Of a stretch of DNA of 64,000 nucleotides, positions 28,631 through 55,705 are shown piece after piece. The notes under the pieces are model-generated. The model did not search any database. It saw nothing but the letters and a program-made list of their open reading frames with translations, and was not told the origin of the DNA. A program made the position numbers and the translations under genes. Source of the stretch: a virus (Duplodnaviria > Caudoviricetes); IMG/VR virus record IMGVR_UViG_3300042997_000909, positions 59,451 to 123,450 of that record. One strand, written 5' to 3'. Within the stretch, counting starts at the first letter, position 1. Each line of letters starts with the position of its first letter.

Positions 28631-28646
28631 AAAAAAAATATGAATT

Positions 28647-29396: not shown

Positions 29397-29423
29397 AATG
29401 TTTATTAAAAAATAGAAAATACT

Positions 29424-30104: not shown

Positions 30105-30128
30105 ATTATAAATTTAAAATAAACAGAA

Positions 30129-32493: not shown

Positions 32494-32494
32494 C

Positions 32495-33163
32495 ATGACA
32501 GTTGGAGAAGCAATATCAAGAGTACGTAACCAAGTAAAGGCTGTTAAGCAGGATGCTAACATAACCAATAGGTTTTTGTACTCAGTGATTATGAAACATG
32601 CGCGATTCTTTATGCATCGCCAAGATAATCTTAATCGCATAATGAAATACAACAGTGTATTTCAAACTTTAAATTTTGTTGAGCTTATCACTGTAGATGT
32701 TGCAGAAGCGCAATGTTATGGTGTAGATACTGGTTGCTACTTTAAAAGAACAAAAAAGAAACTTCCTAGAATGATTGAAGGTTATTATGGACCATTACTT
32801 AGGTCAGTAACATCTTTAGATTTATCTCAACAAGCTATTCCAACATTTCCAATTACATTTCAACAAATCTCAAGACAAAGCACATTCAAGTATAATAGCA
32901 AAAAGTATTACTGGTATCTAAATGGATACTTATATTTTCCAAATCTTGAATGGGAAGCTATAAGATTAGAAGGTGTTTTTGAAGAAGATATATCAAGCAT
33001 GAACTGTGATACAACAGATGACTGTTTGTTTGTCACTGACCAGAAAATAAATGTGCCAGAATTCTTATTCTCAGAAATTGAACAACTTGTGATGCGTGAT
33101 CTTGGTGTGATGATTCAAATTCCTTCAGATCCTGGTCAAAATGCATCAAGTGTAACATCATAA
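32495..33163 (+). CDS. tail ring / tubular protein
   Basis: KRTKKKLP, YYWYLNGYLYFPN, EGVFE motifs; likely ATG at 32495. Confidence 0.65.
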   Translation: MTVGEAISRVRNQVKAVKQDANITNRFLYSVIMKHARFFMHRQDNLNRIMKYNSVFQTLNFVELITVDVAEAQCYGVDTGCYFKRTKKKLPRMIEGYYGPLLRSVTSLDLSQQAIPTFPITFQQISRQSTFKYNSKKYYWYLNGYLYFPNLEWEAIRLEGVFEEDISSMNCDTTDDCLFVTDQKINVPEFLFSEIEQLVMRDLGVMIQIPSDPGQNASSVTS

Positions 33164-33166
33164 CAA

Positions 33167-37300: not shown

Positions 37301-39934
37301 ACACTACGTCTTGTAAGAAAGAATTCATGGTTCTATCTTTTCTATAATGGTGTACGCGATTACTTTACTGAGTCAGAGTTAAACATGGCATATAGGGATT
37401 ATGGTGTAGAAGACTCTCAGAAATTCTATGACGTTTATGGACGTTCTTTTAATGATTTGTCTACAATGTTCAGGTCAGATCAAATTACTAAACCAGCATT
37501 TTACAAATATGATTTATCACTCAGTAGTTCCAAGTTATTCAACAACCTCGCAAATTGGGGAAATATCTTACCACGCGACTATGACCCACAACTCTACTCA
37601 ACATGTTTTGAGTACTATCCAAGAAGAAGTGTCTATTCGCTACGTCAACAAGCAGGACTTAGAAGAGACAACTGGAGAAACTTTTTGCCTCTCAATTACA
37701 AAGACTTCAATGGCAGAATAAATATAATCAAACCACTTAATGCAACTGGTTGTGTAATTCTTTTTGAAAATGCAGAACCTACTACATTTGTGGGTGTTGA
37801 TCAGTTACAAACACAGGGAGGAGTTAAAGTTACAATTGGTGATAGTGGATTATTCCAGCAAAACTTTCAAAGTCTTGTAAATGCAGATGATGCCTTATCA
37901 TATGGTTCATCTATATCATCACGTGCTGCGGTAAACACACCATATGGGTTATTCTTTGTGTCACAAGATATAGGAAAAATATTTGTGACAACTGGAACTA
38001 ATCTTGATGAGATATCTCGTAGTGGTTTAAAATTCTGGTTTGCAGAAAACCTTCCTTCAAAAATGTTGGAAGTATATCCTGACTATCCACTATATGATAA
38101 TCCAGTAGCAGGGATTGGTGTACAAGCAATATATGATTCAATGTATGAGTTAGTCTACTTTACAAAAAGAGACTATGTGCCATTGCGTAATGACTTATTA
38201 TTTGATGATCCATCTGGCGTACCTTACTATTTATGTGGTACTGCTGAACCTAATCCAGACACACCAGATGCAAAACGTTCAGATAATATTGACTTTAAAT
38301 CTTTGACATTAAAAAGTGAAACTGACTGTACGCCACCATTGGATATAGCTATTGTTTTAGATATAACAGGTAGTATGGGTGCGGTTTTAGCTAATACTAA
38401 GGCAAGTATTGTAGCTATTGCAAATCAAGCTGCTACTACTTCTAACAATGATTATAGAATAGGTGTAATTACTGTGAATCAGATAACTTCTACTTCTACA
38501 AACAATACAATTGTTGAACCTTTTAGCTTAAACAATATTGCAACACTTCAACCAAACGTTAATGCAATAACATTAGGATCTGGTGTAGGTATTCCTGAAC
38601 CAACGGATGTTGCAATAAGAGATATACTTGAAGATGCATTGGGTGCGTTTAGAACAGATGCAACAAAGATGATTATAGTAATAACTGATGCTGTACCTTC
38701 TGGAGAAAATGATGATACATTCAATGCAATAGATCAAGCAGAAGTACTTGCAATATCCAATATTGCAGCATCAATGGGAGTTCAAATTTATCCAATTGCA
38801 ACAGGTGCAGGTGTATCAATTCCTAATGTGCAAGCAGTACATGATACGTATGCAACAATATCAGGTGGTACAGCATACAATTCACCATCTGGTGCTATTG
38901 GAACAATTGTAGAAGATATTATCAAAAGTGTTGAGTGTCCTGTATCTTGTGAGTTCTCAATAAACAAAGTTGATATTAACCAAGGAGAAACTATTCAGTT
39001 GGTATGGAATTCATCTGGAGCCACAAATGGTATTATTACACCTGGTAATTATGAAGTATATCCAAGTGGTTCACTTACATTGACACCTTTGGTTAGTACT
39101 ACATACACATTAACAATGTTTGGTGCTAATGATACAACAAGTGTTTGTACAGTTAGTGTTAAAGTAGATCCTGCACCATTGAAATGTCCTTGTGCATTTG
39201 ATGATCCACTTTGTTTTGAACCTTGTAACTGGACAGTAAGCTATGATCCAAAATCTAAAATATGGATAAGCTTCCATGACTGGCATCCAACACTTATGAT
39301 GCCTTCTTATCAGAACTTCTTTACAATAAACAATAACAAAATTTGGAAACATAATGATCGTTGGGATAGTTTCTGTAACTACTATGGTACTAACTATCCA
39401 TGGGAAATTGAGTATCCTGTTGTGACACCAAATCAAGTTACTACTCTTAGAAGTTTTGAGTATTATCTAGATGTGTATAAATTCTACAATGATGGTAAAG
39501 ATTTTCACCATGTGCTAGATCAAAACTTTGACAGAGCAGTTATCTATAACTCTGAACAGATTTCTGGTATCCTTAAAATGCGAATAAAGCAAAAAGGTAA
39601 TCCATTAGACATCCTTGCAAATCCTGTAATTGGTCCTGACTATATTGAAATACTTTTTGCCAAAGAAGAAAACAAATATAGATTCAATACATTTTGGGAT
39701 ATTACAGATGATAGAGGAGAATTTTCTGGTACAAAACTTCCAATGTGGAGAACTAAATGTTCTGGCTATAAGAAAGATATAAATCCTGAGTATGTAGACT
39801 ACAACAAGTCACCATTGGAACACAAAAAGTTTAGACACTATGGTAACAGAGTTATTCTAAGAAAGAACATAAGTGGTGATAACAAAATGATTCTTAAACT
39901 TGTAAATACTAAAAACTTAAATAGTCCAAGATGA
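34340..39934 (+). CDS. tail stabilisation / muzzle protein with vWA and Ig-like insertion
   Basis: 1864 aa; GNEPSN, YMRDEVYSY, FGGDVYINRY, TPYGLFF, WTVSYD...WISFHDW.P motifs; vWA DITGS...TD...ITDA at ~38330-38940. Confidence 0.75.
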   Translation: MADNTQNTTGVKTNSFNKGMVKDNTDIFMSEGLWYNAINAINNSHYGETGSIGNEPSNKFCAQAPYTIIGYAFIRETEWLVFSTNNIDSEIGIFDESKCSYTKLINDTCLNFKTTNLITAFVKENYDCTFSGYWQDNLNPDRVMNLNNIPYICVPASEDPCDGDICTDRLDCNKIRLHPLVKQPCVNIRKAIGSGQIINGSYMAAIAYSENGIRLTEYSMPSVPQGLWKDSGFGGSLEINLDDLDPQFEEYELVIISVNTQNAIAKKIGYYNINQKIVIIDVIQGALETIPLSYIPLRNVVYDKSEKMAVVNGYLIRSGVSTQPYINYQIQANKIQTNWVAVEYDTNYYWNGGNVMGYMRDEVYSYFIRWIYNTGNRTASYHIPGRAAIPSDLLPVSGDDIVDPTEQFAWQVYDTSTKVPASGSEKDGGIVIARGNMGYWESIERYPVNPEVWGDLCYKPIRHHKMPSNETIHIHNQGGSRIIVLGVEFSNIEPPVDLDGNPISEIVGYEILRGSREGNKSIVAKGIFANMLEFNINGQTSKKGLMQNYPYNDVRPDPFLSDDYTILDNNENEDPWENASKLNKYKKNYLSFHSVETNFERPAFGTNYIKVYTEEKGTATGQFELPYKHPRFKLLTDNAFTLSVAVGLGIALIEALGKSTVKGGNFPLVAATGAPYADAARESGSATTISDLITGGILSGLSTGGQANVVGTVAGIVQFAISLGFWIPRGMSVVLDLIRNMSNYRDYLLQYNSHGFYSNYTNVNNTSVPSGYNKAFRRRIEDNMIKYVGMHIQDFDNTYRINNLYRTKFVGLKLTKDLPLPVSIDNSKKRVKDVSGISYKDPFGEFTSSICQYYGAIKVDYQNQYGQLYGIVQIPTDSCVYETVPAVGVTYNTNAIFGGDVYINRYTEKNAHFFFNTWMLGEMDGTEWDYRNYVNGPAPRYWASYQNFDASDFNITFDWNFPSQLLPDLDLTTPSDNYRLDAANNGFTLRLVRKNSWFYLFYNGVRDYFTESELNMAYRDYGVEDSQKFYDVYGRSFNDLSTMFRSDQITKPAFYKYDLSLSSSKLFNNLANWGNILPRDYDPQLYSTCFEYYPRRSVYSLRQQAGLRRDNWRNFLPLNYKDFNGRINIIKPLNATGCVILFENAEPTTFVGVDQLQTQGGVKVTIGDSGLFQQNFQSLVNADDALSYGSSISSRAAVNTPYGLFFVSQDIGKIFVTTGTNLDEISRSGLKFWFAENLPSKMLEVYPDYPLYDNPVAGIGVQAIYDSMYELVYFTKRDYVPLRNDLLFDDPSGVPYYLCGTAEPNPDTPDAKRSDNIDFKSLTLKSETDCTPPLDIAIVLDITGSMGAVLANTKASIVAIANQAATTSNNDYRIGVITVNQITSTSTNNTIVEPFSLNNIATLQPNVNAITLGSGVGIPEPTDVAIRDILEDALGAFRTDATKMIIVITDAVPSGENDDTFNAIDQAEVLAISNIAASMGVQIYPIATGAGVSIPNVQAVHDTYATISGGTAYNSPSGAIGTIVEDIIKSVECPVSCEFSINKVDINQGETIQLVWNSSGATNGIITPGNYEVYPSGSLTLTPLVSTTYTLTMFGANDTTSVCTVSVKVDPAPLKCPCAFDDPLCFEPCNWTVSYDPKSKIWISFHDWHPTLMMPSYQNFFTINNNKIWKHNDRWDSFCNYYGTNYPWEIEYPVVTPNQVTTLRSFEYYLDVYKFYNDGKDFHHVLDQNFDRAVIYNSEQISGILKMRIKQKGNPLDILANPVIGPDYIEILFAKEENKYRFNTFWDITDDRGEFSGTKLPMWRTKCSGYKKDINPEYVDYNKSPLEHKKFRHYGNRVILRKNISGDNKMILKLVNTKNLNSPR

Positions 39935-41721
39935 TGAATTCAAATGATAAAAAATGGACAGTAGCTGAGGTTCTGACAAATTTTGGTCAGAGACAATCTC
40001 AGATACAACAAGAAAAAATGGTCAAACAGCAATTGAAAGATGCATTAATGCAGAATCAAGCGCAAAGTTTGAGTCAGTTTGTTCCAGGTATGCAGCAGGA
40101 AATGCCACCTATGCAACAAGATATGTCTTTAGATCAGGCATATCAAGAAGCAAAGCGTGGGGGTATTCATTTAGACCCACGTAAAAAAGGCACGTTCAAA
40201 GCTCAAGCTACGCGCATGGGCATGTCTATTCAAGAAGCAGCATCTCACATTTTGGCTAATAGAAAAGAGTATTCACCAGCAATGGTCAAGAAGGCAAACT
40301 TTGCTAGAAACTTTGCAAAGGAAGAAGGTGGTGAGATGATGGATAATCCATGTCCTGATGGCTATGTTTGGGATGGTGTAAATTGTATCCCTGCTGGACA
40401 ACGTATTGATCAACTTAAAAACTTGCTATTAGAAAAACAAACAGCAAATCGCGCAACTGGGAACAAGAGAACAATAGAAATGGTTTACACAAATCCAGGG
40501 ACATACATTGTAAAAGATGAAAATGGTCAAGTTTTGTATGAAGGACCTAACGATACTCTTGCTAAATCTATATATGCAGCAGGTAAGGAAGGACCAAAAG
40601 ATGTCAGAATGATGCCTTCAATGATTGGTGTAGAACCTACAGATCCTAGATTAAAAGGGTGGGCACAAGATCCAAATACACCTTTTAAAAAAGGCGGTGA
40701 GATGATCAAACGTGCAGATGGCAGTTATTCTCAAAGAGGTCTTTGGGATAATATCAGAGCAAATCGTGGTAGTGGTAAAGAACCAACAAAGGAAATGTTG
40801 CAACAAGAACGCAAAATAAGACGTAAAGCTGAAGGTGGTCCAACTGACTGTCCTGAAGATTTTGAATGGAATGAAACATTACAATCATGTGTACCAATAG
40901 TAACTGAAAACTACGCAAAAGATTATCTAACAGATTGGTACTCGCGCAGAGGAAAAGTTGTAAATGATCCAAATTTTGATGGATTATCTAAACCAAAAGG
41001 TCATGCAGAATGGTTGGGTAAAGTCTTACCAATGATAAATGAAAGAATGGCTACGTCACCTTTAACATATGCGTATCCTGATATAATTGATGGTGATCCA
41101 GCTTTACGTGGTACATACACTCGTCAGACAAAAACGCAAGGTCCAGTAATTGAGATATCTTCTATGGCAAGACAAAATCCTTTTGAGCATGCTGCAACTG
41201 ATTTACACGAACGAACGACAGACTCAACTTTTACTGCTGAAAAGTATGTAGAACCTCAACATCAGAAAATCATAAATGAAAACATAAAGTCATATGAAGA
41301 TTTTCGCGATGCAAGTCCAATAGCTGACCAAGTAAAAGCTGATCAAGCACTTGACGATGAGTTATATGATGAGTACATGTATTCAACTGGTCAAACACCT
41401 GAAGGTTTAGGAAACATGCACTCATACGTAATGAATTGGCGTAAAATGTTTAATATGGATCCAACAAAGGTATACTCAGAAGAAGAAATAGCTGATATGG
41501 TTAAACAAGCTGAAAACGCTGGAATGTTTACAAAAGGTAGTCCAGCATTTAATGATGATATGTACAAGCTGTTTAAACTTTCTAAAGATAACAAAAGTAT
41601 GACAGATCTGTTTAACTTGATGGTAAACAATACATCACCAGTAAAACCAAACAGATTTAATGATGACATACAGTATGCAAAGCATGGTGGTAGTTTTGGA
41701 TATATGCCTGATTTTTTTTAA
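39931..41721 (+). CDS. GG-punctuated multidomain cargo protein with degenerate zincin
   Basis: AKRGG, EEGG, FKKGG, AEGG, KHGG; two CPx[GD][YF]xW..C modules; basic mini-domains; HERTT. Confidence 0.75.
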   Translation: MMNSNDKKWTVAEVLTNFGQRQSQIQQEKMVKQQLKDALMQNQAQSLSQFVPGMQQEMPPMQQDMSLDQAYQEAKRGGIHLDPRKKGTFKAQATRMGMSIQEAASHILANRKEYSPAMVKKANFARNFAKEEGGEMMDNPCPDGYVWDGVNCIPAGQRIDQLKNLLLEKQTANRATGNKRTIEMVYTNPGTYIVKDENGQVLYEGPNDTLAKSIYAAGKEGPKDVRMMPSMIGVEPTDPRLKGWAQDPNTPFKKGGEMIKRADGSYSQRGLWDNIRANRGSGKEPTKEMLQQERKIRRKAEGGPTDCPEDFEWNETLQSCVPIVTENYAKDYLTDWYSRRGKVVNDPNFDGLSKPKGHAEWLGKVLPMINERMATSPLTYAYPDIIDGDPALRGTYTRQTKTQGPVIEISSMARQNPFEHAATDLHERTTDSTFTAEKYVEPQHQKIINENIKSYEDFRDASPIADQVKADQALDDELYDEYMYSTGQTPEGLGNMHSYVMNWRKMFNMDPTKVYSEEEIADMVKQAENAGMFTKGSPAFNDDMYKLFKLSKDNKSMTDLFNLMVNNTSPVKPNRFNDDIQYAKHGGSFGYMPDFF

Positions 41722-41727
41722 CTTTAA

Positions 41728-44604
41728 GTGATGGCAATATTTACTCAAGATAGAATGTATGAAATGCTTGGAGATATTTCCAAGAAGCAAAAGCGCACTT
41801 ATAAAAGAGGTGGGTTAACAGAGGCAGATTGTCCTTTTGGATACAGTCTTGTAAATGGGGAATGTGTTCCAGATCCAGATTGTGAAGATGGTCAATGTCG
41901 TGAGACTGATGAGATTCAGGCAATATATGACAAAGCAGACAGTATTCCAAACAGAGTTGTTGATTTTGAAAAAGGAGTTGTTGAACGTGCTAAACAAACA
42001 GGAACAGATACGCAGTATCCAGATGCCAGAAAGATATGGAGAGAAGAAGGTATAAAAAGTTTTGTTGAACCAAGTTGCATGTATATTGCAGGTCTTGGTT
42101 ATAGATGTGCACCAGAAACTGAAGACTATTTTAAAAAATTCAACCCAGTGCATTTCAATTCTAATATTGGATTTATACATGCTGTAGATAGAGGAGATGT
42201 TCCATTTAAAAGAACTGGAAAGTTTTCTGATAGAAACTTTGACGCATTGGAAAAAGGAAATGTGCAAGTTGGTGATATTGTAAATTTTAAAGGTGCTGAT
42301 AATTCCCATGCTATGACTTTTATAGGATATACAGATGATGGGCATCCTAAATATATAGATAGCAATGGTTCACCAGTAGATTATGGTATTGGAAGTGTTT
42401 GGAAAAACTTAAGACCTAACACAGTTGGTCTAGGACCTGATCATGCGTATGTTAATAGATTTGATACTGAGAGATACGTTCAAGATACTTATGGTAAACA
42501 GGTAGCTGATCTTGAAAAACAAGCACGTGAGAATCCTACATTTTACAAACAAGGTGGTTTAACTCAGTATGCACCAGGTGGTGATTGGCCTCCACTTAAA
42601 AAAGGTGCAGTTTATGTTAATCCCCTTTACATGGGTAACTTTGTTGGAGGTAATAATAGTTTTGATACTTTAACTGGAGAAAATGCTGCATATGATATAT
42701 ACAATCCATACAGTGCTTCTTCTTTTAATGTAGGTGTACAATTACCACTTAGCAAAAATAGAAGAATTGATTCAGAGAAAACAAAAGGTTGGATGATGGA
42801 TGCTTATGTTGGTATGCCATACAGTCAAATGATTGGAGAAGATGCAAAATTTTTACCATCAGCTGGAGTAAAATTTGATTATGAAAACTCTCCTCAAAAT
42901 GATCCAACATATGGTTTTAGAAAATTTAGACCATTTGTTAATGTTGGTGCTGAATACAGTCCTACTGATGGATTTGGTGTTGGTGTATTTGGTGGAGGAA
43001 GAACACCTTTTGGTAAAACAGTTAAACCAGGTTATGGCGCTGGTCATATGGATGCATATGCTGGATTTCAAGGAGGTTTAAATCTTGGTAAAGGAAAAGC
43101 CCAAATGTCACCAATAATAGGTGGAAGACTAAAAGGTGAATATGAACCTGATAGAAAGTCTTTTCTTAATAAAGTTTTAGGAGATGATGTTTCTATTTTT
43201 GGAGAAGCTGGTGCAACTGCTAATTTCTTTAAAGGTAAAATGACCCAAAGAGAAACAGATGATATGGAAGTAGTAGCTACTGGTAATAATAGTGTATATG
43301 GAGGACCTGATTTTGGCACTGCTGAAAGAGAGATTCAATCTCAACCAGATACAGTTGGTGTAGGATTTGACTTCTATGGAAATGTTGGACTTAAAAAGAA
43401 ATTTAGTGATTTTAAATCAACAAAAAAGAAAGTTGCTGATAAAAGAATTCAAGAAAAACAAGAAGATGAACAAAGAGCTTTTCAAGAAAATGAAATAGAA
43501 AAAGAAGAACCTAAAAAGGAGAAACCTAAAAAGGAATGTCCTGAAGGAGAAAGAAGATATTGTGCAGATTGTCCATGTGAGCCAGTAGAAAAAGTTAAAC
43601 ATCCTAGATGGTTAGAATTTGGTGGTTCAATAAATACATATGCAGAAGGTGGGGAACCATGTCCTGATGGTTACATAAGAAATGAAAATGGACGATGTAT
43701 TCCTGCAAATTATGATCCTAATGTTGCAAAAGAAAACACAGATTTTTTAAAATCAATGGCAAATAGTCCATTGTTTACAGAAAGATATGCACGTATGGTT
43801 GGTAAGCCTCTTGAAGATGTTACTCAAGAAGCAGAAAATTACAAACAACAAATACTTCAAAATTTAGAAACTGTACAAATGGGTGATTCAGCATATCCCC
43901 CTGTTCCTTATGAAACAGCAGCAGCATACTATTTCAATAATCCAGAATTAGAACAGTATTCTGAAAACTTAAAGAATGTAGAAACATTAATGAATAGTTT
44001 ACCTACTAGAGGAAAATATAACAAAGAGTTAAGAGCACAGTATCAAAATATGTATGATGATGCTAAAAAAGTATTAGATGCCAAATCAGAAATTTCACAT
44101 AAAGTTTATTTTAAAGATTGGAACAAAGCTCATGACTTACATGAAAGATCACATGCTTCTGTAAAAGGTGATTTAAAAGTTGCAAATCCATATAAATTTA
44201 AAGATTTATCTAAAGATCCTTTGCAAAAGATGATAGTTGAACTTATGTATCCACCAGATGATCAAGAGTATTATGAGTCTCCTGATGAAATAAAATCAGC
44301 AAAAGATGTGTCTGCAGAAGTAATGATGAAATTAGGACTTTATGATCCAGTGAATGGAAACTTTACTCCAGAACATTATAAAAAACTTATTGACTTAAGA
44401 AAATCTGGAAAATTAGATCCAAAAACAGAAAGTCAGATATATAGGATAACAGCACCATATACTGAAGAAGAAACAATAAGAATGTTTAATGATATAGTTC
44501 AAAAAGATTTAAACACTAACACAGAGTTTCAAACACAAACTGCAAGATTTGGAGGTCAATCAAATTTTGAAAAGGTAACTTTGCTAAACAAATTTTTCAG
44601 ATAA
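41728..44604 (+). CDS. GG-punctuated cargo protein: NlpC/P60-like + beta-barrel + zincin
   Basis: PSCM...VGDIVNF..SHAM; amphipathic beta strands; HERSH...PDE; segments separated by paired GG motifs. Confidence 0.75.
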   Translation: MMAIFTQDRMYEMLGDISKKQKRTYKRGGLTEADCPFGYSLVNGECVPDPDCEDGQCRETDEIQAIYDKADSIPNRVVDFEKGVVERAKQTGTDTQYPDARKIWREEGIKSFVEPSCMYIAGLGYRCAPETEDYFKKFNPVHFNSNIGFIHAVDRGDVPFKRTGKFSDRNFDALEKGNVQVGDIVNFKGADNSHAMTFIGYTDDGHPKYIDSNGSPVDYGIGSVWKNLRPNTVGLGPDHAYVNRFDTERYVQDTYGKQVADLEKQARENPTFYKQGGLTQYAPGGDWPPLKKGAVYVNPLYMGNFVGGNNSFDTLTGENAAYDIYNPYSASSFNVGVQLPLSKNRRIDSEKTKGWMMDAYVGMPYSQMIGEDAKFLPSAGVKFDYENSPQNDPTYGFRKFRPFVNVGAEYSPTDGFGVGVFGGGRTPFGKTVKPGYGAGHMDAYAGFQGGLNLGKGKAQMSPIIGGRLKGEYEPDRKSFLNKVLGDDVSIFGEAGATANFFKGKMTQRETDDMEVVATGNNSVYGGPDFGTAEREIQSQPDTVGVGFDFYGNVGLKKKFSDFKSTKKKVADKRIQEKQEDEQRAFQENEIEKEEPKKEKPKKECPEGERRYCADCPCEPVEKVKHPRWLEFGGSINTYAEGGEPCPDGYIRNENGRCIPANYDPNVAKENTDFLKSMANSPLFTERYARMVGKPLEDVTQEAENYKQQILQNLETVQMGDSAYPPVPYETAAAYYFNNPELEQYSENLKNVETLMNSLPTRGKYNKELRAQYQNMYDDAKKVLDAKSEISHKVYFKDWNKAHDLHERSHASVKGDLKVANPYKFKDLSKDPLQKMIVELMYPPDDQEYYESPDEIKSAKDVSAEVMMKLGLYDPVNGNFTPEHYKKLIDLRKSGKLDPKTESQIYRITAPYTEEETIRMFNDIVQKDLNTNTEFQTQTARFGGQSNFEKVTLLNKFFR

Positions 44605-47600: not shown

Positions 47601-47744
47601 GATTTGATAAAACTTTTACCTGTAGCAATTCCAGCTGTTGGTTTTGGTATAATGGAAGGCATGAAAAATGGAACTGAATCAGAAACACCACAGAATAGAT
47701 ATGGTGGTAATATAAAAACTTTAAGTAAATTTATCAGAAAATGA
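44604..47744 (+). CDS. large cargo protein with zincin metallopeptidase domain
   Basis: HEVGH (47202-47216) plus downstream PIELHSE..R; hydrophobic central helices; terminal NRYGG. Confidence 0.75.
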   Translation: MKEYNYNGVRYKRDNNGQWQYFDPTYNKWVYTYYNAPSINGTAVYDSTQLEKIFKSKDPYLKETTTEKVDLDAANAKKAQDRSNILNSALIPTQNKINYVSKNAPTIENANALKDLQVQKQKEDEQARKENELKQQEADRLQALRNSGSDNTRVQINTDAFTKIPTMEENFQQWENITKRQKEEARRLVMNGDVAKHFPHLTEYYLSKENSHRPGGPLTLEEIVLERMRTNPNFFEALDQRKFADFKRREQKAYDDMNWFEKGANFITAVAADPLQTPWNLITRGEGPLAYQASMSLEPEGLGEDYKYYDKMTHKSDGLLSPLNDMINYVNPFRSAVSAGMNLGQGDYGDAAWDAATIIPLLKGAKYGWKGMNALMKAKPISILDNLGPNMLRNSSPLVQKIANKASVGSMLGGYGAYEGVSHNFPNAFKAYSEGDIGKGNEELIMGMLMTTPLAMEVNASKVLPRTVNALKNTKSTALPVMGETAEFAPATLASEVDDAARLKPYSDNARYEYKTLTADDAAKLKAENPNINTEKVLKDTGVPTQEVSIYNEGKLGQAEAFDDSGDFAVNWGVKDIDKYNEMVASTSEADMLSAKITRLNASPTNQQIMQKASDINKVIMDDYYAANNIKSYDEFLKTDLNDFYKFQNQKISELAAQDPDVITILKNNENLWNQRQALINKRDAIRTKLAGGAEDAIDPTFKQKVINLYKEAGVPEDQIPKNAFQNRGQLITDFGKERTKLVDMDYRDPLSEPSFAALSDSDQMTLANDWKDIGGVRTGESSITLASKVHEPQFHTVRRRDFSPVTRMLEEPREYTPWKPWTWKNKNFVPRSRTDWEPFYHDEPTLIETSIKTSYSPEYVGGVNVHEVGHDYQKFYDYWASLLGDYDPAVGYFTGSGKNPIAQRFKDAMVEAKPVDPVTGKRVAGTWASAPIELHSELMRARYDFYTQMKAAKPELSQKQIMDWIKNAEANDDASLFDFYNQTLKSHFKETTPMTERRDLIKLLPVAIPAVGFGIMEGMKNGTESETPQNRYGGNIKTLSKFIRK

Positions 47745-50700
47745 ATAACATGTTTGAATACTTAGCAGGAGGACAATGCTACTCGTGTGGTGGCAAAGTA
47801 AGATATAATGATGGTGGCGAAAGCATGCAGCAACAATCTCCTATTGCTGACATGTCTGGACAAGCTCAACAAAGACCACAAGCGTCTACAATTGATGCAA
47901 ATGCAAAACAATTGATGACATTTCTTTTGGATCAGTTAAGCAAGGGAACAAGTGAAAGAATCTTAAAAAGAACACTCATTGACTCAGGTTTAAAGTCAGA
48001 ACAAGCTAGTCAGTTACTTGAAGTTGCTAAACAGGAGTTTGACAAATCTGTTAAGCAAGGTGATTATTCAACAGAAGCAGAAGATAATCAAATAAGAATG
48101 CAAGCGCAACAGCAACAAATGGCGCAGATGCAACAAGCTGGTCCTAATGCTGGTATGGATCCATCAATGATGGCAATGGACCAGAATGCTGACCAATCAC
48201 AAGTTGCTGATTCTGAAATGCAACAAGCATCTTTTGGTGGTTTTTTCAGTAACAACAATGCAAGACGTTTGAAAAACAAAAAGAACGTTGTTAATATTAT
48301 CTATAATGTTAATGGTGAACCTATTGAAACAGATGAATTTGGAAATCCATTAGTACCTGATGCACAAGCAATGGTTGCTCCAGAGCAATTATACAATCCA
48401 GGCACGCGAGTTTCTGGTGATATTTTTAATGGTGGTAATGCATATACTACTACGCCAAGAATGAATATGGGTGGAACTTGTCCAGCTGGTTATGAGTGGA
48501 ATGATACGACAGGTTCTTGTGTTCCTTCTACAGCAACTGTCAATACAATGAAAGCAGGTTCTGGTCCAGTTAGTATGGGTGGTAATCCTGCACAAACACA
48601 AGCTAGTACTAAACAGACAACTGATACATATAATCAAAATATGCAGTTGCAGGCTGAGGCAAAAGATAAACAACGTAATGCTGAAATGGGTTATTATGAC
48701 AAGATGTTGAATTCTGGTAATACAAAAAACACTCAACGTTTTAATAACTCAATGGCTGCAATGGGAGCATTCCATCAGCAAATGTTAAATGGTCAACTAC
48801 CATTTCAACAAACACAAGCACAACCTCCAATGATACCTGGCGTAAATACCAATCCTACTCCTAACCAAGGAACAACTCAGGATTTTGGTACTACTACAAA
48901 TGCGCGTTTTGGTGGCCTTGCTAGATTTGTCAATGGTGGAATGAAACAATATGGTGCTGGTGGTACTGAAGATGGATGTCCAGTAGGATACTATAAAGGT
49001 CCTGATGGAGATTGTTTAAAAATATTTGGTTCTGATCAATCACAAAAACAGTTTCAAGAATATCAAAACTGGTATGGTAAGGATGCACTTGATCCTGGAA
49101 TGAGTAGAGCAGCACCATTGTCACAAGATGAATGGAATAAAGAAAATCCTGCACAAGATCAGATGGCTGCAGAAAATAAAAAATATCTATGGGACCAAGG
49201 TGCTACTGATAGACAGAAAAAATTTCAAGGATATCTTGATTGGCATAATAAAGATGCAGTTGAGCCTGGTATGAATAGAGCTGCTCCTCAAACTTATGAT
49301 GAGTGGGAAAAGGAAAACTATGAGGGACAAAATCCTAATGCTACTAACAACACTGCAAATAACAATAATACAAATGCAAATGGTGCGCCAATAGATCCAA
49401 GATTAACAAACAGTCCATACATTGTAAGAACTGACAAAAACAAAATTGCAAATCTTGATAACAACTGGGTAAACAAAGCATTAGCAGTAGGAAGTAATTT
49501 AGGTAGTGCACAAACACTTGGTGCTACTGGGGCATTTGGTCCATATCTTCAAATGTTATTAGGAGCCACAGGTGCAGTATCTAGTGCAGCACTTGGAGCT
49601 AAGAAAATATTTTCTGGTACTAAGCGTACTGTATACGATGATAAAGGAAACGTGTTTGAGTATGATAATAAACGTTCATACAAAGATGCAGGTAGAGGAG
49701 ATTCTCAGAACCAAGGTAATCCAGGTTCAGGTAATATTACTGATACTGGTGTTAATGGTGATATCCCAAAAGGTTCATTCCTGAAGACAAGCACTGATAA
49801 GTATGGACAACCTCAAGGTATTGGTAGACAAGGTGAACTTGTTTCATATGATAATCCATTGCGTAATGCACCAAGAAGAGAAGGTACAGATGAAGAGGGT
49901 AATCCAATTATGGGTAAATATGATGACCAAGATAGATTAAATGACATGCTTGAGTTTACTGGAAAAACGCAGAAAGATTTTAAATCACAGGGTCCTGCAT
50001 TATTTGGAGAAAATAAGTATGGTTCAAAAGAAGAGTTACAACAAGATTATGAAGATGCTGGATTTTTTGGCAAAATGAGACAGAGAAATCAGTTTAAACG
50101 TGATGCTATGTGGAGTCCAGATCTTAGTAAATCAACTGAAGTAGATGAACTTAATAATAGAACAAATCCTCCTGTTGAAGATCCTGCAGTAGTAAAAAGA
50201 GATGGTGGTGAATGGAATCCTTTTGTAGACAACAGACGTAAGTTAAGAATATCTATGCCAATGTATGGTGGTGGTGGGCCACTCAATAATGAAACAACTC
50301 CATATACACAGCAAGAATGGGCACAAGTACAATCAAAAACTTTTCCTTTAAAGCCAGAAGATATACAACCATACAATGATTATGTTGCAGGTTTTAATAA
50401 CACTGCTGGAACTAACGCCTCTAACTTGAATGTTGCTGGCACAAGTAATGCTAACAATGCATTAAGTGCAAATCCAAACGCAAACATGGTTGACACAAAA
50501 GAAGTTACTGTTGATCGTGGTGATGCGTTAGGTGCGCGAGTAGCACAGAATCTTTATTCAGGTTTAGCTGGTTGGAATGCTGGTTTGAATGAGATTCAAG
50601 GAAACAAAAGAATGAAGCAAATACAAAAGAAAAGACAAGACATTGGTAACTCAATGGAGATTTCTGCAGTCAATCCAATTAACATGTATGGTTCTTGGCA

Positions 50701-50884
50701 AGCAAATGCAAATCAAGGTTCCAACTATGATTTGGCTAATCAAGGTGCAACTCAAGACTGGCAAACAACACTGAATGCAAAATTTGGTGGAACAAAGTAC
50801 AGAAGAGGTGGAACTTACCAAGTATCTCCTGAAGAACTCAGAGCTATAATAGCAATGGGTGGTGAAGTTGAATTTTTGGATTAG
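47741..50884 (+). CDS. Q/N/G-rich GG-punctuated cargo protein
   Basis: More than 10 GG motifs, two CPxGY modules, a ~36-aa internal duplication, hydrophobic segment. Confidence 0.75.
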   Translation: MNNMFEYLAGGQCYSCGGKVRYNDGGESMQQQSPIADMSGQAQQRPQASTIDANAKQLMTFLLDQLSKGTSERILKRTLIDSGLKSEQASQLLEVAKQEFDKSVKQGDYSTEAEDNQIRMQAQQQQMAQMQQAGPNAGMDPSMMAMDQNADQSQVADSEMQQASFGGFFSNNNARRLKNKKNVVNIIYNVNGEPIETDEFGNPLVPDAQAMVAPEQLYNPGTRVSGDIFNGGNAYTTTPRMNMGGTCPAGYEWNDTTGSCVPSTATVNTMKAGSGPVSMGGNPAQTQASTKQTTDTYNQNMQLQAEAKDKQRNAEMGYYDKMLNSGNTKNTQRFNNSMAAMGAFHQQMLNGQLPFQQTQAQPPMIPGVNTNPTPNQGTTQDFGTTTNARFGGLARFVNGGMKQYGAGGTEDGCPVGYYKGPDGDCLKIFGSDQSQKQFQEYQNWYGKDALDPGMSRAAPLSQDEWNKENPAQDQMAAENKKYLWDQGATDRQKKFQGYLDWHNKDAVEPGMNRAAPQTYDEWEKENYEGQNPNATNNTANNNNTNANGAPIDPRLTNSPYIVRTDKNKIANLDNNWVNKALAVGSNLGSAQTLGATGAFGPYLQMLLGATGAVSSAALGAKKIFSGTKRTVYDDKGNVFEYDNKRSYKDAGRGDSQNQGNPGSGNITDTGVNGDIPKGSFLKTSTDKYGQPQGIGRQGELVSYDNPLRNAPRREGTDEEGNPIMGKYDDQDRLNDMLEFTGKTQKDFKSQGPALFGENKYGSKEELQQDYEDAGFFGKMRQRNQFKRDAMWSPDLSKSTEVDELNNRTNPPVEDPAVVKRDGGEWNPFVDNRRKLRISMPMYGGGGPLNNETTPYTQQEWAQVQSKTFPLKPEDIQPYNDYVAGFNNTAGTNASNLNVAGTSNANNALSANPNANMVDTKEVTVDRGDALGARVAQNLYSGLAGWNAGLNEIQGNKRMKQIQKKRQDIGNSMEISAVNPINMYGSWQANANQGSNYDLANQGATQDWQTTLNAKFGGTKYRRGGTYQVSPEELRAIIAMGGEVEFLD

Positions 50885-50986
50885 ATTTGCTACATTTGTA
50901 CTATGGAGGATTGGATTAATCAGAATATTTTTGTAACTTCTAATGAGGGATGTGGTAGACCATGTCCCTTTCTAAAACTTTAGAAT

Positions 50987-53900
50987 ATGTATAGAGTACG
51001 TATAAAAACATCTCCAGAAGGTGGGACTCATAAAATGACTGGTGATCAAGAAGGTTATGGTCTTGTAAGAAACACGTCTGCAATCCAAACTTCTCCACAT
51101 GCTGTTAGCGTAAATAACAAGATGGGTGCAATTCCAAGAGAAGAAGCAAACATTGAAGTTGAAGGTGGTGAATCAGTTATTGGTGATGTAAACCAAGATG
51201 GAACAATGGAGCTTATGCACTTTCAAGGTAAGCGTCATTCTGAAGGAGGAATACCTGTAAATATTCCTGAAGGTTCATTTATTTTCTCAGACACCAAATC
51301 ACTAACTATAAAAGATAGAGAGGTGATTGAAAAGATATTCAATCTTCCTTTTAGAAAACAAGGATATACGCCTGGAGAAATTTCTAAAAAATATGAGATA
51401 AACGCATACATAGAAGTTCTTAAAGATGAGAATGCTGACCCTTTGGCAAAACGTTCTGCTGGAGAAATGCTTAAAAAGAATAAGCAAAAGTTAGGTATTC
51501 TAGCTTTTATACAAGAATCAATGAAAGGTTTTCCTGATGGAATTCCTGCTATTGCTGAAGATGTTCTTTCTACAATGGGTATTGACCCAAATCAAATGGC
51601 AGAACAATTTGCTCCTCAACAACCTCAACAAGGTATGGGTGCTATGCCTCCACAAGAAATGGAAGGTCAAGGTATTCCAATGTCTGAAGATGAAGATGCA
51701 ATGCAAGGTATGATGCCAGAAGGTCCTATGATGGGACCTGATGATGTTGCACAACAAATGACTGGTCAATTTGGTGGTTCTATACCATCATATCAGAAAG
51801 CTGGAACTGTGACAACACCATCATGTCCTATTGGGTACAAATGGAATCCATATGTAAAAGCATGCGTAACTATTCCATATGCAGGTATTGCCTCAAAAGG
51901 TATGATACCTATGATTGCATATCAAAACTATTTTAATCTTACACCAACAAAACAAACACCAAAAAAACCTGCACCAAAAAAGCAAGATGACTGGAGTATA
52001 GAAGATGTTAAAGAACGAATGATAGAAGGTAGTAAGAAAAAAACACCACCTCCATCATTGACAACATCTGGTAAAAGACCTTCTCAAGAACCTTTAGGTG
52101 ATAACAGTGCTGCTGCGCAATTTAAAAGAAACAATTCAGCAGCAGAAGTAAAACAAAAAGAAGCTCTGAGAACATACTATGATAATGAAACTAAAAAGAC
52201 ATTAGCAGAAGGTAAAAAGAAAGAAGCAGAAGCATTAGCAAAAAATCCATACAAAAATGATGTACCAGGATTTGGTAAAAAATCTGATTTAGATGAGTAC
52301 ATGAAATCTGGTGCTGAGCAATGGGCTGCTGGTAATACATTTTACCAAGCACTTGCTTCACAAGATCCTGCAAAAATGCTTGATGCTGCTAAAACAATTA
52401 AGGATACAGATGTTCCATACAGTGTTGGATGGTTGCCTTTTACAGATCAAGATAAGATTGATGATATGGTTGCTATACTGCATCAAGAGGCATATAAATA
52501 TCTCAATAAGAATGAGCAGACTAAACTTCAAAAATACTATAGTCCTGAGATTCTTAACAAGAATGTTGACATGCTTATTAAAGATGCTAAAGCTAAAGCT
52601 GAAAGTGCAACTGACTACAAACAAAAAATTGCATTTGCAAATGAAGTGGCTAAGTATGAAAGATATAAAGAGTATTTGAACAATGATAACCATAAAGACT
52701 TTAGAAAGGATATTAAGAATTCAAGAGTTTCATATAATGATTCTTGGTTCTTTACTGAAGGTGACTTTGGAGAACCAATTCAGGATAGAGAACTTGTAAA
52801 TACGCAAGCAGGTACAGAAGGATCAGGGCCATATAATATGTTCTTTAATGACACTGAGATTTTAGGTATAAACATTGGTGCTAATGAGATTGACCAAAGT
52901 ACAGATCAATGGTTTAGAGGACCACGTAGTAAGACGTATTTAGAAATGTACGATGAGATTACAAAGGCTTCTGACAAAATCAATAAGACTAATATTGCAA
53001 CAATCGCCCCATTAGGTAATAAAGGTTTATTACATACAAAAGAGCGTGCAGGTTGGATGAACTGGGATGCTCCTGAGTTAGAAGACAATGTAAAATACAT
53101 CTATAATCAGTCAACTAAATATGACAATAAACCAGACAAAGCTGCAAATTACAAACCAGAATATACATTACCAGCAGCTCCACGTTCTGTTTTTAAAGTA
53201 GGCACAGATGCTGATGGTGTTGCGCAATGGGTTGAATATACTGAAGAGGGTGCACAAATGGCTGTATCAAATCCTGAATGGGTAAAAGCATTGAATACAA
53301 ATGCTCAAATGAAGGAACCTGACAAGATATTTTTAATCAAACCAGCAAAAAATGTTATGGATGGAAGTATCATTGACATTCTTGAAGAAGAGATAAAAAT
53401 GAATCCTCAAATACAACAACCAGTAAATGCTAATCCTTCTAATAATACAGGTCAACCACCTGTCAAAAAATCAGTTGTTGCTCCTATTGTTCCAGCAAAA
53501 CAACAATCAAAGTTTGATAATGGTCTTACAGAAAATGATTTTAAACTTGAAAGAGGTGGTGTTGTTGGACAGATGATGACTATTAATAATCAGCAATATA
53601 GATATGGTGGTCTTATAGATGAAGATGGTAAACTACGTTATAATAGAGGTGGTTCTGTTCTTCCTAAATATGCAGGTGCAGGTACTGTTACAGGTCCTGG
53701 TGATCCACCAAAAGAAGAACTTGTTGATGCAAATTTTACAACAAGTAATGGTACAAAAGCTAAAAAATATAAACTAATAATCACAGACCCTAATGGTGGT
53801 GCTCCATCCACAATTGTTATTATACGTGATGCTGCTGATGAAACCAAGATTCTTGGTAGAATGAATGTTGAAACAGGAGAATCTTATAAAGATCCAAATC

Positions 53901-55705
53901 AAACCATTACACGTGCAAGTTCTACATGGATAACTGCTGATAACCTTGATGACTGGGAAAAGACTCAAATTAAAGACAGATGGGGTGGTAATACACAAGC
54001 ATATATTGACTTTCAAAATTCAAATAATCAGATACGTCTTAACACAGATTTTAAAAATGCAATTGTTAAACAATATCAAGAAGACGTAAAGGATTCTAAA
54101 AAACGAATGTATACTGGTAAAAAGCAAGGTACACGTGATACTTTCCATACATCATATGGTAAAAATGTAGAAGCGCTTGCTGCCAGTCCTGAAGAAATCA
54201 TCAACACAATGATGAATTTTGAAAGAAATAATGCAAGACTTGCTGCTTATGGATTTGATCCTTCAACTAGTAATCAAAATGTTGCTTCATCTTCAACGTC
54301 AACTGGTAGAACAGATAATCAAGGTTCATATGTAAATGAGGAAGCACGCGCTTTGATTGAAAAAAACAAAGGATTACAAGATATAGATTTTAGTAAAAAC
54401 TACTTAGGTCAAGGTACGTATATATCATATAGACGTGCTCTTCAGAATAATGCTCAATTTCAAGATCTTGCTGAACATAAACAAGTAGGTGTAGATGATG
54501 AAACAACATTTGATATTACAGGAAGAGTTTCTGGTATTGACAACTACAATACTAATACAACATTAGGTGAACGTTTAGGTTATAAAACAAAACCACCAAC
54601 ACCACCTCCAGCACCTCCTGGTGAAAAACAGAAATTTTATTGTGTTGAATATTCTGATGGTACTAAAGCAGTTCAAACTGTTAACTATAAAGAGGGTGAA
54701 ACACCTACTGAACCAAAAGGAGATAAGGTTGTTAAATCAACTGAGTATTCAAGTCTTGAGTTGGCTAATACAAATTGTGAGCCTCCAAAAACTCCACCTC
54801 CTCCAGATACTCCTCCACCACCACCTAATAAGCCAGGTCCATGGTTTACGCCTGATGTCATCAACCTATCAACAGGTTTAAGACAACGTATTCCACATCC
54901 TAGTGTAACGTTACGCCAGATGCCACAAATCTATTCAGGTTATGATTTGAATAATCCAATAACTCAGATAGCTGGTGCAACAGGTTTAATGCGTCAACAA
55001 CAAGATCTTGCCATGAACACAATGGATGCAACTACTGGGTTTGCAGCTATGGCAGGACAAGGATATGACGCACTTGCAAAAGGTATTAGTGGCATTGAGG
55101 AGAAAAATGTTGACACAGTTAACAATTATCTTGGCAGAATTGGAAGCTTACAGTATCAATATGACTTAGCTAATCTTGGTCAAAAACGTCAATTTGATGT
55201 TGACACAGGTGTTGCTACAGACGAATGGGCTGGAGATCTTAACAAGAACGATGCACAAAATGCAATGCTTTATAACACAGGTTGGGGTAATGTATTTAAA
55301 GATGAAGGTTTCAAACTTGCATATCCACAAGCATATCATGCAAATAGAATAACTCCTGATTATAGTTGGTCAGGAAGAGGACGCAACATAATGGGGCCAA
55401 ATACACATGTATCTCCAGGAAGTGGTGCAACAGCACAAGCTGACTGTACTGCTGTTTATGCTCAAGCATATAATAGTGTAAAAAATGATGCAACACGAGA
55501 TGAAGCAGCAAAAAGAGATTATGCTTCAAGAATGGAAGCATCTTGTATTTCTCAGAATAATTCTCGTGCAAATTCAAATAACAAGACACAACAACAATCA
55601 TACGTGGCAAATGCAAATTCATTATTTGGTTCTGAGTTTGGTGGTACATTTTATACAGCACCAGGATCATATGAATTTGGTGGAACTTACTTTGATGATT
55701 TTTAA
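50987..55705 (+). CDS. large virion cargo protein
   Basis: N-terminal ANIEVEGGE...G.RHSEGGI...PEGSFIFSD domain seen in crAss-like cargo proteins; GG motifs; Pro-rich linkers. Confidence 0.75.
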   Translation: MYRVRIKTSPEGGTHKMTGDQEGYGLVRNTSAIQTSPHAVSVNNKMGAIPREEANIEVEGGESVIGDVNQDGTMELMHFQGKRHSEGGIPVNIPEGSFIFSDTKSLTIKDREVIEKIFNLPFRKQGYTPGEISKKYEINAYIEVLKDENADPLAKRSAGEMLKKNKQKLGILAFIQESMKGFPDGIPAIAEDVLSTMGIDPNQMAEQFAPQQPQQGMGAMPPQEMEGQGIPMSEDEDAMQGMMPEGPMMGPDDVAQQMTGQFGGSIPSYQKAGTVTTPSCPIGYKWNPYVKACVTIPYAGIASKGMIPMIAYQNYFNLTPTKQTPKKPAPKKQDDWSIEDVKERMIEGSKKKTPPPSLTTSGKRPSQEPLGDNSAAAQFKRNNSAAEVKQKEALRTYYDNETKKTLAEGKKKEAEALAKNPYKNDVPGFGKKSDLDEYMKSGAEQWAAGNTFYQALASQDPAKMLDAAKTIKDTDVPYSVGWLPFTDQDKIDDMVAILHQEAYKYLNKNEQTKLQKYYSPEILNKNVDMLIKDAKAKAESATDYKQKIAFANEVAKYERYKEYLNNDNHKDFRKDIKNSRVSYNDSWFFTEGDFGEPIQDRELVNTQAGTEGSGPYNMFFNDTEILGINIGANEIDQSTDQWFRGPRSKTYLEMYDEITKASDKINKTNIATIAPLGNKGLLHTKERAGWMNWDAPELEDNVKYIYNQSTKYDNKPDKAANYKPEYTLPAAPRSVFKVGTDADGVAQWVEYTEEGAQMAVSNPEWVKALNTNAQMKEPDKIFLIKPAKNVMDGSIIDILEEEIKMNPQIQQPVNANPSNNTGQPPVKKSVVAPIVPAKQQSKFDNGLTENDFKLERGGVVGQMMTINNQQYRYGGLIDEDGKLRYNRGGSVLPKYAGAGTVTGPGDPPKEELVDANFTTSNGTKAKKYKLIITDPNGGAPSTIVIIRDAADETKILGRMNVETGESYKDPNQTITRASSTWITADNLDDWEKTQIKDRWGGNTQAYIDFQNSNNQIRLNTDFKNAIVKQYQEDVKDSKKRMYTGKKQGTRDTFHTSYGKNVEALAASPEEIINTMMNFERNNARLAAYGFDPSTSNQNVASSSTSTGRTDNQGSYVNEEARALIEKNKGLQDIDFSKNYLGQGTYISYRRALQNNAQFQDLAEHKQVGVDDETTFDITGRVSGIDNYNTNTTLGERLGYKTKPPTPPPAPPGEKQKFYCVEYSDGTKAVQTVNYKEGETPTEPKGDKVVKSTEYSSLELANTNCEPPKTPPPPDTPPPPPNKPGPWFTPDVINLSTGLRQRIPHPSVTLRQMPQIYSGYDLNNPITQIAGATGLMRQQQDLAMNTMDATTGFAAMAGQGYDALAKGISGIEEKNVDTVNNYLGRIGSLQYQYDLANLGQKRQFDVDTGVATDEWAGDLNKNDAQNAMLYNTGWGNVFKDEGFKLAYPQAYHANRITPDYSWSGRGRNIMGPNTHVSPGSGATAQADCTAVYAQAYNSVKNDATRDEAAKRDYASRMEASCISQNNSRANSNNKTQQQSYVANANSLFGSEFGGTFYTAPGSYEFGGTYFDDF

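Follow-up and report, generated by a model that had tools for sequence, protein, structure and literature searches.

Five consecutive open reading frames (ORFs) of a virus, a divergent crAss-like phage, have the appearance of strings of exchangeable modules joined at a short aromatic-glycine-glycine motif. These ORFs, here called O1 to O5, span positions 39931-55705 of a 64,000-nucleotide window, which comprises the last 64 kb (positions 59,451 to 123,450) of the 123,450-bp record IMGVR_UViG_3300042997_000909; coordinates below refer to this window unless the genome is named, and the elements of O1-O5 and their flanking genes lie on the + strand. An earlier note, made from the letters alone, had described more than 20 GG motifs across these ORFs and had read them as processing sites of modular effector polyproteins or as a capsid-loading tag. 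The five ORFs proved real as described, and every example coordinate falls on the first glycine codon of a genuine GG. We propose that O1-O5 are modular ejection proteins, each a string of independently folding cassettes, in which aromatic-x-x-GG would be a conserved inter-cassette seam, often doubled at about 8 amino acids (aa) and often followed by a two-cysteine beta-hairpin. The seams, which we infer to be probably uncut, would act as flexible joints that allow modules to unfold and thread singly through the portal and tail, and would also be the sites of evolutionary cassette exchange. Each gene position, or slot, would keep a characteristic N-terminal leader and a characteristic short tail preceded by GG, as address or docking tags. 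We give this combination of uncleaved flexible seams and terminal tags an even chance of being correct; the motif, its confinement to O1-O5, its coincidence with homology breakpoints, the slot-specific ends and the synteny of the locus are direct observations.

The motif is enriched in the five ORFs and in no other part of the window. Counts were compared with 2000 per-protein shuffles, and the spacing of GG pairs with 3000. O1-O5 contain 51 GG dipeptides versus 35.5 ± 5.6 expected, a number equalled in 6 of the 2000 shuffles. The narrower form [YFMAK]xxGG occurs 28 times (9.5 ± 3.0 expected; 0 of 2000 shuffles), and GG with an aromatic residue at -3 or -1 occurs 27 times (6.0 ± 2.4 expected; 0 of 2000). 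For the remaining 27 ORFs of the window, 8 aromatic-GG motifs were observed versus 9.2 expected, which indicates no enrichment there, in the comparison with the rest of the proteome that the earlier note had suggested. Tyrosine occupies -3 at 13 of the 51 sites (background 4.6%); the conserved side chain is aromatic and at -3 (29%) or at -1, rather than aliphatic at -2. By ORF, the aromatic-GG count is 11 in O4, 8 in O2, 6 in O5, and one each in O1 and O3, that of O3 being its C-terminal one; among large neighbours it is 3 in O0, 0 in the 895-aa and 1704-aa proteins, 2 in a giant RNA polymerase (RNAP)-like ORF and 1 in a 2028-aa ORF. Seven GG pairs are spaced 7-9 aa apart versus 0.62 expected (0 of 3000 shuffles), which upholds the pairing at about 8 aa that had been noted. 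Early GGs follow conserved leaders in O2 (residues 28-29), O4 (10-26) and O5 (12-13), and are absent from O1 and O3. A comparison among O1-O5 for paralogy found nothing shared beyond the hairpin and GG elements.

The seam interpretation draws on where homology between relatives starts and stops. The sample comprised 100 homologs (33 of O2, 18 of O3 and 49 of O4) and five syntenic phages. The O2 homologs are 575-1657 aa long, and some contain SET or VanY domains; most of them cover only 24-45% of the length of O2, with identities that reach 97%. Of the 54 internal breakpoints of this family, 61% lie no more than 6 aa from a GG, versus 9-13% for random placement (maximum 30% in 5000 trials), and the ends of shared blocks cluster at aa 25 and 47-51, at aa 262-290 and at aa 630-642. 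O2 itself (slot 2, 958 aa; 41728-44604) consists of a leader, a module A, a beta-barrel-like module B, a helical module C with the sequence HERSH, and a tail. The first cluster falls on the post-leader seam, YKRGG with a CPFGY..C hairpin (aa 25-48; 41800-41871), in which G28 and G29 are more than 90% conserved. The second, with 25 of the 54 breakpoints, falls on the doublet YKQGG-LTQ-YAPGG (aa 273-285; 42544-42582), whose G276 and G277 are the sole invariant columns of the family alignment. The third, with 11 breakpoints, falls on the doublet and hairpin LEFGG..YAEGG-EP-CPDGY..C (aa 629-659; 43612-43704).

The same pattern was observed for O4 (slot 4, 1047 aa; 47741-50884), the most motif-rich of the five, in whose family 37.5% of 168 breakpoints lie near GG versus 13.5% for random placement (maximum 22.6%). 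An O4-specific cassette extends from ASFGG (aa 163-167) to MNMGG and its hairpin (aa 240-262; the whole at 48227-48526); aa 168-239 are absent from most homologs, with breakpoints at 167/178 and 240/244. Further breakpoints, at aa 388-408, mark a triple GG with hairpin (ARFGG, FVNGG, YGAGG, CPVGY..C; aa 388-427; 48902-49021). In O1 (slot 1, 596 aa; 39931-41721), a conserved leader and a conserved C-terminal half with its tail enclose a variable bay that runs from GG133 and its hairpin to FKKGG at aa 252-256. Orthologs from the five syntenic phages vary in this bay between two GG sites: they diverge past aa 137-154, at the first seam (..EEGG with a CPDGY..C hairpin; aa 129-155; 40315-40395), and homology returns at aa 249-252, where the FKKGG seam (40684-40698) forms the downstream edge.

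Modules also move between slots. The homolog P0017 consists of O1 residues 1-137, module B of O2 and O1 residues 252-596, and both joints are at GG sites of O1. In the relatives L005 and L006, slots 2 and 3 are fused in one gene, which contains a slot-2-like leader, a beta-module, the sequence ..KYGG-LTKFVGGG-NPGD- and then O3 from its residue 2, such that the boundary between the O2 and O3 genes in the present genome is a GG doublet in these two relatives. Module B is thus found in slot 1, slot 2 and the fused slot 2/3 of different relatives. At the level of sequence comparison, these results confirm that GG sites are where modules are exchanged, gained, lost and fused among relatives, as the earlier note had supposed when it placed GG at domain borders and likened the modules to cassettes. 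Between GG seams, O2 relatives also carry cassettes of a SET methyltransferase (P0007, P0019 and P0020) and of a VanY D-Ala-D-Ala carboxypeptidase (P0031), which are candidate injected effectors.

The structural model of O2 agrees with a flexible seam to the degree that a weak model allows (mean pLDDT 49): the seams lie in its lowest-confidence coil, with a mean pLDDT of 36 versus 56 for GGs within the beta-module. Module B (aa ~294-558; 42607-43401) was modelled as antiparallel strands of 10-17 residues. Its Foldseek matches are all sub-threshold and nearly all outer-membrane beta-barrels (OpcA, the best at E=8e-3, EspP, Pla and KdgM), and from this model an outer-membrane pore module of the ejection apparatus is a possible identity.

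The ends of the proteins are as regular as the seams. The last GG precedes the C-terminus by 9 residues in O1, 15 in O2, 11 in O3, 6 in O4 and 6 in O5, and a GG is present within the last 35 residues of 99 of 99 full-length homologs of O2, O3 and O4 versus 9 of 100 other ORFs of the genome; the observation that each ORF has a GG near its C-terminus is thereby extended to its homologs. The peptides after this GG belong to a few classes: ..FGG-QSNFEKVTLLNKFFR; ..YGG-LLKFFRR together with ..RYGG-NIKTLSKFIRK; GG-..YELGDEVDE..M.ELKKLGYTFEKI; GG-..GWLDNYK; and ..YAKHGG-SFGYMPDFF. The O1 tail, YAKHGG-SFGYMPDFF (41674-41718), is identical in L001 and near-identical in L003-L005. The O2 tail, ARFGG-QSNFEKVTLLNKFFR (44542-44601), is the same in P0002, P0003 and P0008-P0010, with close variants in P0015, P0016 and P0018, and the O3 tail, NRYGG-NIKTLSKFIRK (47694-47741), is nearly invariant across 18 homologs down to 28% identity. 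The O4 tail, AKFGG-TK-YRRGG-..-MGG-EVEFLD (50777-50881), is kept in six phages and is a variant of the third class, related to tails of the form GG..LGYTFEKI, while the O5 tail, SEFGG..YEFGG-TYFDDF (55631-55702), is kept in L003, L004 and L006. Across the six syntenic phages, slot order is constant and each position retains its own leader and tail around an interior that varies.

We infer that these slot-specific end peptides probably serve as tags for address or docking, through which the proteins would be loaded into the particle and put in order. The suggestion in the earlier note that GG itself is a capsid-loading tag comes closer to this picture than does cleavage, and the better tag candidates are the peptides that follow the last GG or precede the first, which GG sets off. 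The constant gene order and slot-specific ends would also be expected if the proteins formed a head-to-tail ejection chain, in which each tail binds the protein of the following slot, at its leader or N-terminal module, and thereby fixes the order of exit, with a GG doublet as the covalent equivalent when two slots are fused. L005 and L006, in which slots 2 and 3 are fused, also lack the C module and the tail of slot 2, and tail class is not strictly tied to the body of the same protein, as O2-type N-terminal modules pair with either of two tail classes; both observations fit such a chain. The core L.KF[FI]R[KR], with which slot-2 and slot-3 tails and some slot-1 tails end, fits one common receptor better, and we consider the chain quite improbable.

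The second recurrent element is the hairpin, C-P-x-[GDE]-[YFW]-x(4-9)-C, usually followed by [VI]-P, which lies 1-15 aa downstream of seven GG sites. The whole 123-kb genome contains seven copies of this pattern, all within O1, O2, O4 and O5; those not given above are at the second O1 seam (..AEGG with CPEDF..C; aa 298-322; 40822-40896) and at an O5 seam (GQFGG with CPIGY..C; aa 260-295; 51764-51871). Both O2 hairpins are beta-hairpins in the model of that protein. The composite keeps a fixed pattern among relatives, as in Y.QGG-L..-YAEGG-EP-CPDGYI.NENG.C-IP, and two or three copies of the hairpin may be present. When 1.84 billion representatives were searched with a 39-position profile of GG plus hairpin, 543 clusters matched at E<=1e-3. 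Proteins that match this profile over its full length are large, reaching 3766 aa; they have early GGs and numerous aromatic-GGs and end in tails of the classes given above. Where only the hairpin matches, it forms tandem arrays in Cys-rich proteins that are unrelated and that match CBM_14, TIL, cEGF and DUF4215. Because of these arrays, we regard the hairpin alone as a generic disulfide-type beta-hairpin.

A generic hairpin and the clustering of breakpoints would both be accommodated if the seam were evolutionary only, a linker plus hairpin that spreads with cassettes and is regenerated by recombination between paralogous seams, with no biochemical role. We rate this the least probable of the explanations considered. 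The copies at junctions have no more than 17-37 nt in common, with an identity of 65-94% and variable synonymous positions, which leaves no long DNA identity for homologous exchange; GG is invariant among homologs of only 25-40% identity; and GG is kept at termini, although these join no modules, as well as in the distant gp45 family described below. A signal at the DNA level, such as a Chi-like GGTGG hotspot, was also considered and rejected, as the second glycine codon is at background and no octamer is conserved. The first glycine codon is GGT in 78% of cases versus 63% in the background, a small bias that is explained by avoidance of GGAGG.

Synteny places O1-O5 among cargo genes. The block begins with tail ring proteins 2 and 1 (32483-34336; Pfam CrAss_Ring_2 at E=7.7e-22 and CrAss_Ring_1 at E=4e-6, the latter at 26.9 bits and slightly below the 27-bit cut-off). 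These are followed by O0 (34340-39934; 1864 aa), which occupies the muzzle-protein position by synteny with crAss001 gp44 and with L005/L006 and matches a virion structural protein PHROG, then by O1-O5, two motif-free large genes of 895 and 1704 aa (55716-63517) and a giant ORF with similarity to gp50 and gp47; L005 and L006 have the same order. The best-studied crassvirus, PhicrAss001, encodes its cargo proteins gp45 and gp46 between the muzzle gene gp44 and the RNAP genes, and virion mass spectrometry (MS) detects both. Because the gp44-to-RNAP interval encodes cargo in that phage, we consider O1-O5 to be in cargo position, between the ring and muzzle genes and the virion RNAP genes, as is characteristic of Crassvirales cargo. 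Judged by this gene order, O1-O5 are most likely virion cargo that is packed into the particle and injected.

The cargo protein C1 of PhicrAss001, gp45 (crAss_CARG1, PF25725; PDB 7QOG, 7QOI, 7QOJ, 7QOL and 8CKB; Bayfield et al., 2023, PMC10172136), shares the motif. It contains 6 aromatic-GG sites versus 2.0 expected (p=0.016), at residues 17-21, 206-210, 260-264, 329-333, 424-428 and 559-563. The parts resolved by cryo-EM are a ring-bound helix (214-245) and a portal-bound domain (425-552) (PMC10172136); aromatic-GG motifs bracket both, and the Pfam CARG1 model covers 424-555. Among relatives of gp45, the flanking motifs are kept at 46-51% identity and indels start right at GG, and three relatives lack residues ~266-372, with GG joined to GG. 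In the published model, the 179 unresolved residues at 246-424, which contain three GG motifs, bridge 420 Å between the tail-bound and capsid-bound parts, and the ~266-372 deletion would shorten this proposed bridge.

Like O1-O5, gp45 thus combines a position between muzzle and RNAP genes, aromatic-GG motifs that bracket modules, and gain or loss of segments at GGs. Unlike O1-O5, it has no CP hairpin and none of these tail classes, and the two show no detectable homology. CARG1 had no match in the present genome at E<=10, and the O5 N-terminus, which was considered as a CARG1 portal-binding domain, was rejected (BLASTP E=0.7; no Pfam match). A blastp comparison of O0, the 895-aa, 1704-aa, giant and 2028-aa proteins with gp44-gp50 gave no match to gp45 or gp46; O1-O5 were not compared directly with gp46. 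The published work on gp45 (PMC10172136) does not mention the motif, and our literature search found no description of the seam or the tails. The gp45 motifs tie an uncultured environmental lineage to the sole solved crassvirus virion, which suggests that the seam rule is order-wide.

The gp45 structure also bears on whether seams are cut. A425-F426-G427-G428 lies inside the ordered portal-bound domain; since the ordered segment 425-552 includes this motif, the chain of the mature particle is continuous across G428-W429, which argues against an obligatory cut after GG. Virion MS recovered peptides from all parts of gp45, with no processing reported. The modular part of the earlier note's proposal thus stood, namely proteins in cargo position whose modules are swapped at GG, while its cleavage step found no support. 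The note had cited the adenovirus protease, ASFV pS273R and C39 systems, in which a GG dipeptide likewise lies at protein or domain borders; CE-clan proteases such as adenain and pS273R recognise (M/I/L)-x-G-G|x or G-G|x, and a C39 peptidase, usually part of an ABC exporter, acts on leaders of 15-30 aa that end in GG. The present sites differ from these in having an aromatic P5 or P3 rather than adenain's hydrophobic P4 and in being encoded by a genome with no detected CE-clan or C39 peptidase, and no likeness was seen between the leaders of O1-O5 and the consensus of double-glycine leaders. The protease search that the note had suggested was run with Pfam families against a six-frame translation of the complete genome. 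C5 (PF00770) and C48 (PF02902) gave no match at E<=1, and neither did C39 (PF03412), OTU, M23, S77 (PF03420), S78 (PF04586) or ClpP (PF00574) match; the head-module ORFs matched no protease family, and the one between portal and major capsid protein matched no family at all.

The main candidate for a peptidase is O3 (slot 3, 1046 aa; 44604-47744). Besides O3, HExxH sequences occur in module C of O2, in R3 and in the giant ORF. That of O3, HEVGH (aa 867-871; 47202-47216), belongs to a pattern HE.GH that is present in 17 of 18 O3 homologs; the H, E, G and H and a downstream Glu are invariant in the alignment A3, and an HE.GH protein is present in all six phages. Residues 500-1046 (46101-47741) were modelled with confidence (pLDDT 86, pTM 0.76), with HEVGH in a helix after two strands. 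Some 30 residues separate the end of the fold from YGG, and the tail forms a low-pLDDT extension with a short terminal helix. A Foldseek search of the model against PDB gave no match, a VIA fold search was dominated by a helical hairpin such that the catalytic part was barely tested, and the A3 profile found no PDB sequence relative. Based on its sequence, O3 is a candidate peptidase that would act as an effector or in processing, with the zincin fold unconfirmed, and possibly represents a new metallopeptidase-like fold family.

If a processing protease were supplied by O3 with its HE.GH, by the region around HEAFH in the giant RNAP-like protein or by the host, O1-O5 would be polyproteins cut at or beside aromatic-x-x-GG after loading or ejection, which would free the cassettes and remove leaders and tails as propeptides. 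The distribution of the motif, which is found at every border type, 6-30 aa before C-termini and 10-29 aa after three N-termini, is a poor fit to a mere linker and favours such processing, as do the invariance of HE.GH in the O3 family and its occurrence in all six phages. Furthermore, the O3 gene starts at the position past the GG doublet of L005/L006, as viral polyprotein cleavage products do. Precedents exist in T4 gp21 and the phiKZ-type prohead proteases, which cut internal head proteins at short motifs. For polyvalent proteins, autoproteolysis by embedded metallopeptidase domains has been proposed, and DdrB of phage P1 is processed before packaging (Iyer et al., 2017, PMC5512222). Against processing stand the lack of a match to any of eight protease families in the Pfam search, the unconfirmed zincin fold of O3, the YGG tail of O3 that is undocked from the domain in its model, the continuous gp45 chain, a Pro immediately after GG at two sites, and the N4 virion RNAP, which is packaged unprocessed (PMC5512222). 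We conclude that cleavage at the seams is unproven and slightly disfavoured, and that polyprotein processing as a whole is unlikely.

Several points weigh against uncleaved seams with docking tags as well. A flexible joint has no obvious need of a conserved aromatic residue or an 8-aa doublet, and the seam therefore probably binds some partner. The evidence from gp45 excludes a cut after one GG only, in a distant relative, and since order starts at A425, a cut before the motif is compatible with the structure; the conserved HE.GH protein in the same block could be a processing enzyme. Swap borders without GG exist (O3 at ~aa 472-500; O5 at aa 334-418), the O2 model is weak, packaging of O1-O5 is deduced from synteny, and for the partner that the tails would bind there are at least four equally weak candidates, among them the portal, the ring proteins, the ORF between portal and major capsid protein, and the leader of the next protein.

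Known systems resemble parts of this arrangement. Encapsulins load unrelated cargo into an HK97-fold shell by means of a short peptide, conserved at the C-terminus and preceded by a flexible linker rich in Gly, a layout similar to the O1-O5 tails, with no sequence similarity and with tail binding here putative. In T4, internal proteins and Alt have a capsid-targeting sequence that is cut by gp21, and head proteins of phiKZ and SPN3US are cut by a prohead protease. As may hold for O1-O5, proteins that are unrelated to one another enter the head there by means of a short conserved peptide, and the sites of processing are recognisable by a short motif; unlike here, an identified prohead protease cuts after Glu, and no S77, S78 or ClpP was found in this genome.

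Polyvalent proteins are large mosaic multidomain proteins that occur in late or virion gene contexts and for which packaging and delivery are predicted (Iyer, Burroughs, Anand, de Souza and Aravind, 2017, PMC5512222). O1-O5 likewise are mosaic, with enzymatic cassettes in relatives of O2 and a candidate metallopeptidase in O3, and they combine at least two unrelated domains per polypeptide with mosaicism between relatives, as polyvalent proteins do. A cluster bearing LPD23 is a weak atlas lead to the polyvalent repertoire (score 0.79). That study (PMC5512222) describes no conserved junction peptide, terminal tags or crAss-like phages (the words 'linker' and 'crAss' occur 0 times). The ejection proteins of N4 and other Schitoviridae, gp50 (the virion RNAP), gp51 and gp52, are stored in order in tail, portal and capsid, and the N4 virion RNAP is an uncleaved beads-on-a-string protein with long flexible linkers that is docked to another ejection protein (PMC13434306). 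N4 differs from the present phage in having three ejection proteins, no shuffled multi-slot array and no known shared motif.

Crassviruses are among the most abundant phages known, and they select, load, order and eject megadaltons of cargo protein. A seam, together with a few terminal peptides that follow a GG and remain constant as the payload varies, provides concrete handles on cargo loading and ejection, and the seam gives a practical rule for splitting giant phage ORFs that defy annotation into modules. Should the tags work as proposed, they would offer a way to load foreign proteins into crass-type capsids. In the unlikely event that seams are cut, one address tag would load a whole string of effectors, which O3 or an enzyme of the host would then cut, either inside the capsid or once ejected; this would be cassette-exchangeable, polyprotein-style effector delivery of a kind undescribed for tailed phages that lack a prohead protease.

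A Pfam scan of the five proteins gave no match, and most cassettes are without a Pfam family. O4 begins with a triple GG (aa 7-26; 47759-47818) that is near-invariant in six phages, as is the CxxC (C-Y-S/K-C; aa 12-16; 47774-47788) between its repeats; with these as the only two Cys, a metal site or disulfide would need a partner. O5 (slot 5, 1572 aa; 50987-55705) has a pair YRYGG..YNRGG (aa 871-889; 53597-53653) that is kept in L001 R5.

The proteins that flank the cargo block have their own peculiarities. O0 contains a VWA insert at aa 1335-1491, and in its L001 ortholog the region ~aa 1300-1497 is replaced, which makes O0 a mosaic too, without GG seams. The 895-aa protein (55716-58403), the next after the cargo block, has zero GG (4.3 expected), zero Cys and no family match, and its length is 882-895 aa across all relatives. 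The final 157 codons of the window (63529-64000) form a frame that is open at the contig end, and the contig starts with the 5'-open, 3887-aa virion RNAP-like ORF (genome 1-11664; L046); the record is complete with direct terminal repeats, and we assume that the two frames are one gene across the repeat. The identity of this giant ORF rests solely on weak blastp matches to crAss001 gp50 (E=1e-9, which includes DFDID) and gp47 (E=5e-9); neither it nor the 2028-aa ORF had a Pfam match or a useful PHROG match. It combines gp47-like and gp50-like regions (aa ~896-1078 and 2544-2635) in a single polypeptide, with HEAFH at aa 950, DFDID at aa 2628 and 1 Cys per 3887 residues.

The terminase, portal and major capsid protein match crass-type PHROGs, and the capsid protein matches Pfam Crass_capsid at E=1e-31. 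The portal has at most 22-33% identity to entries of the phage collection, with the top match from a Leptolyngbya phage. A megablast of the region and a tblastn of O4 against that collection gave no match, and a search of viral contigs with O4 found no locus. In the head module, a DUF5856/ferritin-like protein is encoded at 23882-24361. Nearby, at 27044-31808, three proteins that are likely fibres or receptor-binding parts are encoded: one is Cys-rich with fn3 (25 Cys), one has collagen repeats, and one has a Fib_succ_major domain (21 Cys).

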